Assembly: GCF_029227855.1 (NCBI RefSeq)
Contig: NZ_CP074356.1
Strand: one strand, 5' to 3'
DNA: 64,000 nucleotides
Source: Escherichia coli
GTDB lineage: Bacteria > Pseudomonadota > Gammaproteobacteria > Enterobacterales > Enterobacteriaceae
Shown: one piece after another, positions 9,745-11,263 of the stretch
How positions within the stretch are numbered: position 1 is the first letter of the stretch
How the letters are laid out: each line of letters begins with the position of its first letter
Translations under genes and position numbers: made by a program
The notes under the pieces: generated by a model
Seen by the model: only the letters and a program-made list of their open reading frames with translations
Told to the model about the DNA's origin: nothing
Databases searched by the model: none

Positions 9745-9767
9745 CAGGGCAAGATTACGAAAGCCCG
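9745..9767. repeat. 23-bp direct repeat, copy 1 (CAGGGCAAGATTACGAAAGCCCG)
   Basis: Matches 10121..10143 with one mismatch; the two copies bracket the IS256-family fragment. Confidence 0.6.
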
Positions 9768-9800
9768 GAGCCTGTCCATCATTCTGTGTAAATGCCTTTC

Positions 9801-10130
9801 TCAGAAGTGACCGTCAAGGCGGTCACCGAACTCGATAATAAAGCGACTCATCCCTATCCGCCAGTCCTGAAGTGGCATCGTCCATTTTTGCGACGCTGAC
9901 TGGAAAGCCAGCCACACCACTTTTTTCACCGACTCATCTGTCGGGAACACTTTCCGTTTCTTTATCGCATGTGTGATGATGCTATTCAGCGATTCGATTG
10001 CGTTAGTGGTGTAGATAACCTTGCGGATCGCCTCCGGGTACACGAAGAATGTGGCAACATTCGGCCAGTTTGCCCGCCAGCTGCGACTTATCTGCGGGTA
10101 CCGTGCATCCCATTCCTTCCCAGGGAAAGA
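9801..10130 (-). pseudogene. IS256-family (mutator-type) transposase, C-terminal fragment only
   Basis: About 110 C-terminal codons (..ANWPNVATFFVYPEAIRKVIYTTNAIESLN..) with no start and no N-terminal catalytic region. Confidence 0.7.
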
Positions 10131-10143
10131 TTACGAAAGCCCG
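10121..10143. repeat. 23-bp direct repeat, copy 2 (CAGGGAAAGATTACGAAAGCCCG)
   Basis: Overlaps the junction between the H-repeat transposase stop codon and the IS256 fragment. Confidence 0.6.
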
Positions 10144-11263
10144 CTCCCCGCAAGGACTGACGCCAGATAGTTTCTGTCCATGGCTGCTTTTCGCATCTTA
10201 CGTCTTAACCCTGCCTTGAATACCTTATCATTCGTCAAAATATTAATAGCGATGTGCCGTATCCCTGAAAATAATTCTGCTGCATTTCCTCTTCTTATTT
10301 TGCAGTCGTCTTCATTCATTACCACGTCCAGACGCCAGTGCAGCTTATTCTCCACGTGCCAGTGGTTTCGGATTGCTGTGGCGAACTTCTCTGCGGTTAA
10401 ATCAGCAGAACTAATATAATATCTGACCGCCATTTCTGGCTCTTTCTTTTGTTCTGCTATTATTGACCGAAAGGAGACTGCCACGCATAATTTCTTCAGA
10501 CCTTTCCATTCAAACGTGAAATCAATAAGTTCATCAGGGACATCGCAAACAATGTGAAGACGGATTTCTTCTCTGCCGTGACTCTTTTCACTCATTGCGT
10601 AACTGTCATGCTCTGGATTATTTAATTCTTTCAGCGGAAATTCTCGAAGGCTTTATTTAGCCGCCCCTGGTTTCCTTTTACAGCGAATAAATAATCACCT
10701 CCCTGTTTTTGTATCTTCTCTGCAATATCTTTCTGGCAACCCATCGCATCAGTTGTGATGATTTTTCCTTTAATATCCAGCATGTTAAGAAGTTCTGGGA
10801 TAGCTGTAATTTCATTGGATTTCTCATCCGTCCTGATCTGTCCGATGACCAGACTGTGCATTGTTGAGAACGCACTAATGACATGAATCGCTCCCTTGCG
10901 GCGACTCTTGTCATAAGAATGCCGGAGTGTTTTTCCATCAATTGCGATGACGTCTTTATCATCTGAAGTATGGCAATCTCGCATCCAGTTAATAAAGCAC
11001 TCGTGAAATTTTGCAGGACTGATACAGGATACAACTCTGGCGATGGTATCGTGAACAGGAATACCATTTTAAAAATCACCGTATTGTTTTAAAAAATCGA
11101 GATGTGTTTCCCCAAAATCCTCTATATCTTCCCAACCTTCCGCACCCGAAATAACAGCACAAATAGTCAACAGTAGAATATCCGATAATTTATGTTCCAC
11201 TTTCCAGGCTTGTCTGTAATCGGGGATAATAGAAATATGCCCCATCAATTTTTTAAGTTCTAT
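10131..11263 (-). pseudogene. ISAs1-family (H-repeat associated) transposase, decayed
   Basis: Three collinear pieces of an H-rpt protein: start codon is ATA not ATG (11261..11263), in-frame TAA after ..KQYGDF, and a roughly 4-nt deletion frameshift between 10595 and 10631. Confidence 0.8.

Follow-up and report, generated by a model that had tools for sequence, protein, structure and literature searches.

What are the pieces of insertion sequence (IS) that lie between yafV and the Rhs module of a type VI secretion island in Escherichia coli, and by which events were they brought together? In the 64-kb stretch of DNA analysed here (64,000 nt of contig NZ_CP074356.1, referred to below as the window) the genes follow in the order ivy (minus strand), yafV (plus strand, ending at 9706), IS debris, an ORF for 125 amino acids and an Rhs gene. 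A sequence-only reading of this DNA had described the debris as a decayed H-repeat (H-rpt) transposase gene abutting an IS256-family fragment between 23-bp direct repeats, and had taken the whole for the scar of nested insertion and deletion at the left edge of the island; in outline, the borders and the composition of the pieces agree with that description.

As IS debris the structure is ordinary, and both of its pieces are already entered in RefSeq as transposase pseudogenes. It likely carries little weight for cell function, and expression or mobility of the region is unlikely. What can be added to the earlier description is the identity of the repeat as an H-rpt terminus, the exact borders of the pieces, a 15-bp vestige of one more H-rpt end, the mosaic composition of the H-rpt and a possible insertion hot spot. 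In our judgement the region is quite probably a stack of dead insertion sequences without present function, produced by nested insertion and then by a deletion between two H-rpt copies. Between yafV and tRNA-Asp lies the type VI secretion/Rhs island, and the debris marks its boundary on the left.

A dead H-rpt and its right ends

A complete but dead H-rpt/ISEc1 element (ISAs1 family) of 1287 bp occupies the minus strand at positions 10121–11407. Its right inverted repeat (10121–10145) was paired by a repeat finder with the left one (11383–11407) as a 25-nt inverted repeat with 80% complementarity. Alignment to intact elements of the ISAs1 and IS256 families, a check proposed with the sequence-only reading, sets the ends at 10121 and 11407 for the H-rpt and at 9768 for the IS256-family piece. 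The alignment to the ISEc1 copy of the yhhI locus has its limits exactly at 10121 and 11407, with an identity of 95.8%; the lengths are 1287 and 1291 bp, the difference being due to a 4-nt deletion in the resident H-rpt, and 1291 bp is the length listed for ISEc1 (PMC6650469). For H-rpt copies at the unrelated loci ydcC and yhhI the match to the window begins at 10120/10121, and at the other end the homology of other H-rpt copies stops at 11407/11408.

The transposase pseudogene of the resident H-rpt (10131–11263, minus strand), annotated in RefSeq as ‘frameshifted; internal stop’, was compared with the intact yhhI copy of ISEc1 from strain ATCC 43886, to which the minus strand of 10100–11430 was aligned. 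All three independent lesions noticed earlier are seen against this reference: the start codon is changed from ATG to ATA (11263–11261, minus strand), GAA has become TAA 64 codons into the gene (11071–11069), and the deletion, first put at roughly 4 nt, removes exactly 4 nt (GAAA) between 10642 and 10643. The intact transposase frame of a potentially active copy is thus absent from the resident H-rpt, and the three lesions bear out the earlier description of it as dead. Its three ORF pieces still match the domains DDE_Tnp_1_assoc (PF13808, E = 1.6e-19) and DDE_Tnp_1 (PF01609, E = 5.7e-18 and 3.6e-9), with scores of 166.5 and 131.2 bits against the ISAs1-family model NF033564 (cut-off 70), and the element has both the domains of the ISAs1 family and the length of ~1.29 kb bounded by inverted repeats.

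The resident H-rpt has the same terminal inverted repeats and the same pair of transposase domains as H-rpt/ISEc1 (the K-12 copies being yhhI and ydcC), and it sits just downstream of an Rhs module. It differs from these copies in that it is dead, in that it is a mosaic of two H-rpt lineages, and in having IS256-family sequence instead of chromosome next to its right end. The flanks of the element, ...CCTTCC and CACTTC..., share no repeat, and none was found at the yhhI copy or at the copy of strain 118UI either; a missing target duplication is what one would expect if the resident H-rpt is a recombinant.

The mosaic was read from informative sites, defined as those at which four canonical copies share one allele and the H-rpt of the yafV locus in strain EC416 has another. 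From 10122 to 10515 the resident element carries the canonical ISEc1 allele at every informative site except 10126, which is of neither type (two of the eleven right-hand sites are alignment columns that arise from the rebuilding of the EC416 copy and are to be ignored), and from 10646 to 11394 it carries the EC416, or yafV-locus, allele at 17 of the 18 sites. As far as these alleles tell, the resident H-rpt is a clean two-part mosaic, with the switch from the canonical right part to the yafV-locus left part placed in the interval 10516–10645, in which the 4-nt deletion also lies. From 10646 on, the element is of the type found at the yafV locus in both EC416 and Y5. The left flank of the window H-rpt differs from the left flank of the EC416-type H-rpt; the left part is related to the EC416 type by sequence, and it may or may not sit in its original place.

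In strain DETEC-P829 the H-rpt at the yafV locus seems to be a mosaic of another kind, its tip being of the variant type and its body canonical. The existence of several mosaics suggests frequent exchange between H-rpt copies, and recombination of this kind is illustrated by the resident H-rpt.

The near-identical direct repeats of the earlier description are present as described, at 9745–9767 (CAGGGCAAGATTACGAAAGCCCG) and at 10121–10143 (CAGGGAAAGATTACGAAAGCCCG), with 22 of 23 positions identical. A search of the 64-kb window with up to three mismatches allowed finds the 23-mer at these two places only, and 100 shuffles gave no match. What had been missed is that the 23-bp motif is the H-rpt's own right terminal inverted repeat. 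Compared with known copies, the repeats are two right terminal inverted repeats of H-rpt/ISEc1 (ISAs1 family) in the same orientation. The second of them is the outermost part of the right terminal repeat of the resident H-rpt; the first (9745–9767, plus strand) is an orphan right tip of the canonical ISEc1/H-rpt type, with 100% identity to the initial 23 bp of the ISEc1 at yhhI, and the end of the IS256-family sequence follows it directly. The nested-insertion reading was to be given up if the motif proved to be a common genome-wide repeat unrelated to either element. A genome-wide repeat it is, with a median of four places per E. coli genome, but it is not unrelated: it belongs to one of the two elements, the H-rpt, so the objection does not apply.

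One more H-rpt end lies before the orphan tip, at a distance of 2–3 bases (GGT), so that three H-rpt right ends are layered here and not two. This is a vestige (9728–9742, plus strand; CGGGGTAAGACTACG) comprising the outer 15 bp of an older right tip of the ‘yafF type’; 12 of its 15 bases agree with the canonical tip. In strains DETEC-P829, 20KM0223N, 6EVA and LHM10-1 the H-rpt adjoining yafV, whether full-length or truncated, has this same sequence as its tip.

The IS256-family fragment and a probable order of events

The sequence between the two repeats (9768–10120, minus strand) is a 3′-terminal fragment of an IS256-family element, 353 bp long. It starts at 9768 with a terminal inverted repeat, GAGCCTGT, and contains a transposase remnant (9801–10120) that matches positions 299–377 of the 379 positions of the Pfam domain Transposase_mut (PF00872; E = 1.4e-18, 67.4 bits, cut-off 21). 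Against the model NF033543 the fragment scores 71 bits, short of the full-length cut-off of 150, as no more than 105 residues are left; the intact 402-aa IS256-family transposase of strain SL124, to whose residues 298–402 the fragment is 94% identical in amino acid sequence, scores 412.8 bits. By PF00872 and NF033543 the fragment is of the mutator type, and the domain match together with the identity to the intact protein substantiates the earlier assignment of this sequence to an IS256-family transposase. That assignment had placed the last 110 codons of the transposase directly after the stop codon of the H-rpt gene. The remnant is indeed C-terminal and the two elements do abut, but the number of codons is 105 (there are 109 between the two stop codons), and the last 10 nt of the H-rpt terminus separate the H-rpt stop codon (10133–10131) from the IS256-family sequence.

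Full relatives have both terminal ends and duplicate 8 bp of target; here the end at 9768 is the only one present and ~960 bp are missing. No further piece of either element, the missing ~960 bp of the IS included, was found elsewhere in the 64-kb window.

Full copies of the IS256-family element allow both borders of the fragment to be placed. At the nucleotide level it is 95% identical to full copies on E. coli plasmids and chromosomes, whose end falls on the same base and which have an 8-bp target duplication. The full copy on plasmid pEC11 begins with GAGCCTGT at the base equivalent to 9768, has the inverted sequence at its other end and lies between the two copies of an 8-bp target duplication, GTATCGAT; a 1313-bp copy adjoins yafV in strain LHM10-1. 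By this comparison 9768 is a genuine IS terminus, located directly after ...AAAGCCCG and 23 bp inside an H-rpt. At 10120/10121 the copies of pEC11 and 6EVA run on as ...CCTTCCCGAACAC..., and the window switches to CAGGGAAAG, base 10121 being assignable to either element. Read against these copies, the IS256-family element is broken internally at position 353 and is joined there to a complete H-rpt end.

Among its relatives, IS1414 shares with the fragment the terminal sequence GAGCCTGT and an identity of 83%; compared with these relatives the fragment keeps 353 of ~1313 bp and has no toxin remnant. We had considered a remnant of astA (EAST1) and rejected it, as astA is situated in IS1414 ~412–528 bp from the right end, a stretch that the 353 bp still present do not reach. 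The insertion found beside yafV in 6EVA and LHM10-1 has the IS type, the orientation and the locus in common with that of the window and is likewise situated inside an H-rpt right tip. It differs in its distance from the tip (40 bp, against 23 bp in the window), in being located in a variant tip, in being either complete (LHM10-1) or cut by IS1A (6EVA), and, in the IS copy itself, at 15 of the 353 positions of the window fragment. It is probably an event separate from the one in the window. A 102-bp left-end remnant of the same IS256-family element is found at 1985495–1985596 of the K-12 MG1655 record NZ_CP010441.1 and has 99% identity to the pEC11 copy; many E. coli chromosomes, that of K-12 among them, contain this remnant, which is annotated as a hypothetical protein.

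The history that we prefer would have four steps. At the start an H-rpt would have lain between the Rhs module and yafV, as it does in most E. coli. An IS256-family element of ~1313 bp would then have entered it 23 bp inside the right tip, severing the tip from the body, and the expected 8-bp target duplication would be AAAGCCCG. In the third step a second H-rpt right end would have been joined to position 353 of the IS, likeliest by insertion of an ISEc1 of the same orientation into the IS. A second H-rpt end is required because IS position 353 is joined to a complete one, and its arrival by insertion is suggested by the exactness of the end junction; if this is correct, the junction inside the IS is an indirect sign of past H-rpt movement. 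Lastly, recombination between the directly repeated H-rpts would have removed the ~960-bp 5′ part of the IS and one H-rpt equivalent, leaving the hybrid. The three inactivating mutations cannot be assigned a place in this order of events; one of them, the 4-nt deletion, falls within the presumed crossover interval.

The recombination step is supported by the mosaic and is not proved by it, because gene conversion among H-rpt copies is evidently common; the mosaic could stem from such conversion rather than from a deleting crossover, and this counts against the history as set out. The reciprocal junction (H-rpt left end followed by the IS256-family element from position 346 on) was present at 80% or more query coverage in none of 5,426 genomes, and the absence of this intermediate, in which the H-rpt left end would be joined to IS position 354 onward, is a further point against it. 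So are the lack of a duplication around the resident H-rpt, the fact that H-rpt transposition has never been observed experimentally (PMC3032704), the GGT left over between the vestige and the orphan tip, and the difference in left flank from the EC416-type H-rpt. The undeleted junction of the first insertion (IS256-family left end, AAAGCCCG, H-rpt body) was not found in its exact form, and other nearby insertions were found instead.

The main alternative is an adjacent deletion mediated by an H-rpt end, which we regard as rather unlikely. A second H-rpt of the same orientation would have been present deeper in the island, and its right end would have attacked position 353 of the IS intramolecularly, with deletion of everything between in one step and without a separate insertion and recombination. 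Such an event would make the junction at 10120/10121 exact to the H-rpt end, as a joint made by a transposase should be, it could draw on the tandem H-rpt-family elements that are common at the yafV locus, and it predicts that there is no reciprocal junction, of which none survives. On its own, however, it leaves the clean mosaic unaccounted for, so that a separate gene conversion is needed, and the transposition chemistry of the ISAs1 family is not established, nor has activity ever been observed (PMC3032704).

We give a still smaller chance to import, in which the whole block (orphan tip, IS256-family fragment, H-rpt, and the Rhs C-terminal and immunity module) would have been assembled elsewhere and brought in by homologous recombination, with yafV as one arm and the conserved Rhs core or the secretion genes as the other. 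Rhs tips and downstream modules do vary between strains at this locus, and recombination in the region is indicated by a comparison with strain 7/2, whose Rhs gene differs at 152 of 4499 positions and whose IS block shows 2 differences. Yet the 15-bp vestige is of the locus-specific yafF type and occupies the orthologous position, an argument for the formation in place of the outermost layers at least, and import would simply shift the same nested events to another genome.

A target-site duplication of the IS256-family element was rejected as the source of the 23-bp repeats, since the family duplicates 8 bp, since the right-hand repeat copy abuts internal IS sequence and not a true end, and since the repeat is an ISEc1 terminus. 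The related idea that the repeats arose as a duplication on the arrival of a 376-bp unit, either as a long target duplication or as attachment-like sites of a small cassette, is highly improbable: by comparison with K-12-like genomes the window does look as if it had 376 extra bases flanked by the repeat, but IS256-family insertions here duplicate 8 bp, one border of the fragment is internal transposase sequence and no IS end, the motif is the terminus of every ISEc1 copy, and the K-12-like genomes carry another tip variant and hence do not represent the empty site.

IS256-family insertions near H-rpt right tips

The history of nested insertion followed by recombination between H-rpt copies, which we continue to prefer, is in line with the observation that nested ISs in H-rpt tips are common at the yafV locus (the insertion in 6EVA and LHM10-1, and cases of IS1414). 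Altogether, seven independent insertions were found 23–83 bp from H-rpt right ends, five of IS1414 and two of its older relative. The older IS256-like element is inserted at yafV in the forward orientation, 23 bp from the tip in the window, where no duplication is seen (the left end is missing), and 40 bp from the tip in 6EVA and LHM10-1 (L009 and L014), where none is seen either. IS1414 is inserted in the forward orientation at ydcC in WP5-S17-ESBL-10 (L011; 31 bp from the tip, duplication CTCCCCGT), at ydcC in Y5 (L013; 52 bp, AGGTAGTT) and at yafV in WP8-S17-ESBL-05 (L012; 63 bp, GTCCATAG), and in the reverse orientation at yafV in EC416 (L017; 64 bp, TCCATGGC) and at yafV in Y5 (L018; 83 bp, TCTTACGT). 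The insertions involve two loci, both orientations and five different 8-bp duplications. In strain Y5 two independent insertions have occurred in the tips of two different H-rpt copies; given that there are 1–8 copies of IS1414 per E. coli genome (PMC6650469), this would be very unlikely under random insertion.

In a control, a query made of H-rpt positions 181–345 beside an IS1414 end yielded no new direct junction and returned the same tip insertions as split matches. An orientation bias of the tip insertions was considered and dismissed: a control in the opposite orientation found two more events, and the earlier pattern of a single orientation came from the design of the query. The searches for tip insertions were designed around this region, and their ascertainment is biased. 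We lean towards the view that the first ~85 bp of the right end of H-rpt/ISEc1 are a preferred landing site for IS256-family elements, namely IS1414 and its older relative, and perhaps for ISEc1 as well. If this is true, the structure in the window is one of many hits and not a random scar, IS1414, which carries the EAST1 enterotoxin gene, gains a defined regional target, and the exact H-rpt-end junction inside the IS would be indirect, natural evidence of past H-rpt transposition. We found no report in the literature that links IS1414 or IS256-family elements to H-rpt tips.

The locus in other genomes and the edge of the island

The structure seen in the window is present in 247 of 5,426 complete E. 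coli genomes, as judged by at least 80% coverage of a 601-bp query that spans both junctions. Most of the other genomes have an H-rpt directly beside yafV with a variant tip (CGGGGTATTACTACG in K-12). Because only these 247 genomes have the window type and the others have a variant-tip H-rpt at yafV, the window type is taken to be derived and not ancestral, and its retention of 15 bp of the variant tip supports this. The two unique junctions make a usable lineage marker for the 247 carriers.

The comparison with the yafF region of K-12, to which the sequence-only reading had pointed, shows that yafF is a 291-bp fragment of an H-rpt right end beside yafV. We take it to be the ‘H-rpt min.5’ of the old literature. 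It has the position, the orientation and the element family in common with the window H-rpt, with 98.9% identity over 280 aligned bases, and it differs in consisting of the right-terminal 291 bp only, in its variant tip (CGGGGTATTACTACG), and in the lack of an IS256-family fragment, a second tip and a secretion island; between yafV and tRNA-Asp K-12 has only yafF, a partial hypothetical pseudogene, ykfM and yafT. That the K-12 state could be a deletion product of the window type, made by recombination between the 23-bp repeats, was ruled out on two grounds: K-12-like genomes bear a different tip variant, and the left part of the window H-rpt is of the yafV-locus type of EC416.

Other strains show further rearrangements beside yafV. 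In strain 118UI (L008, 1690–6131) yafV is followed by a divergent H-rpt stub, two ICE-like genes and an intact ISEc1, then by a 21-bp H-rpt-like vestige (H-rpt positions 57–77) and by an H-rpt that is 99.5% identical to the first 204 bp of the window H-rpt and is split at 204/205 by a group II intron. In 6EVA (L009, 4217–5500) the IS256-family element is cut by IS1A at position 1197; just past it come a partial hypothetical ORF and then tssL, so that Rhs, VgrG and part of the secretion cluster are gone. In LHM10-1 (L014, 4063–5375) the IS256-like element is complete and lacks a matching 8-bp duplication, since each flank derives from a different context; an IS-associated rearrangement is implied.

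On the chromosomal side the edge of the island is marked by yafV, a core gene (2-oxoglutaramate amidase; 8936–9706, plus strand), identified as an ORF and by the RefSeq annotation of E. coli strain 7/2. On the island side the 125-aa ORF (11484–11861, minus strand; a hypothetical protein in RefSeq) is located immediately downstream of the Rhs gene, and from this position it is presumed to be an immunity gene. The Rhs gene itself (11861–16360, minus strand) encodes a core protein of 1499 aa of the type VI secretion island, annotated in RefSeq as ‘RHS element core protein’, and VgrG and Hcp lie beyond it; the same order is annotated in the RefSeq record of strain 7/2. Between this strain and the window there are 0 mismatches over 8900–10120 and 2 across 8900–11861. 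Thus, the 2.9 kb from yafV to the 125-aa ORF are nearly identical in the two strains, and all of the 152 differences mentioned above are located in 11862–16360; the contrast indicates, at the level of sequence comparison, that a recombination boundary falls within the Rhs gene or at its edge.

Opposite yafV, the island is delimited by a tRNA-Asp gene at 42605–42681. This gene would presumably be aspV, at the far edge of an island of roughly 33 kb. The window has a second tRNA-Asp at 51539–51615 and a tRNA-Ala/tRNA-Ile pair at 54967–55161, which we assume to be aspU and the spacer tRNAs of rrnH, respectively; on this assumption the window would run reversed with respect to the K-12 map. Finally, an inverted repeat of 17 nt with 94% complementarity and a 14-nt loop (11432–11479) is found between the left end of the H-rpt and the stop codon of the 125-aa ORF, and it may be a terminator hairpin.
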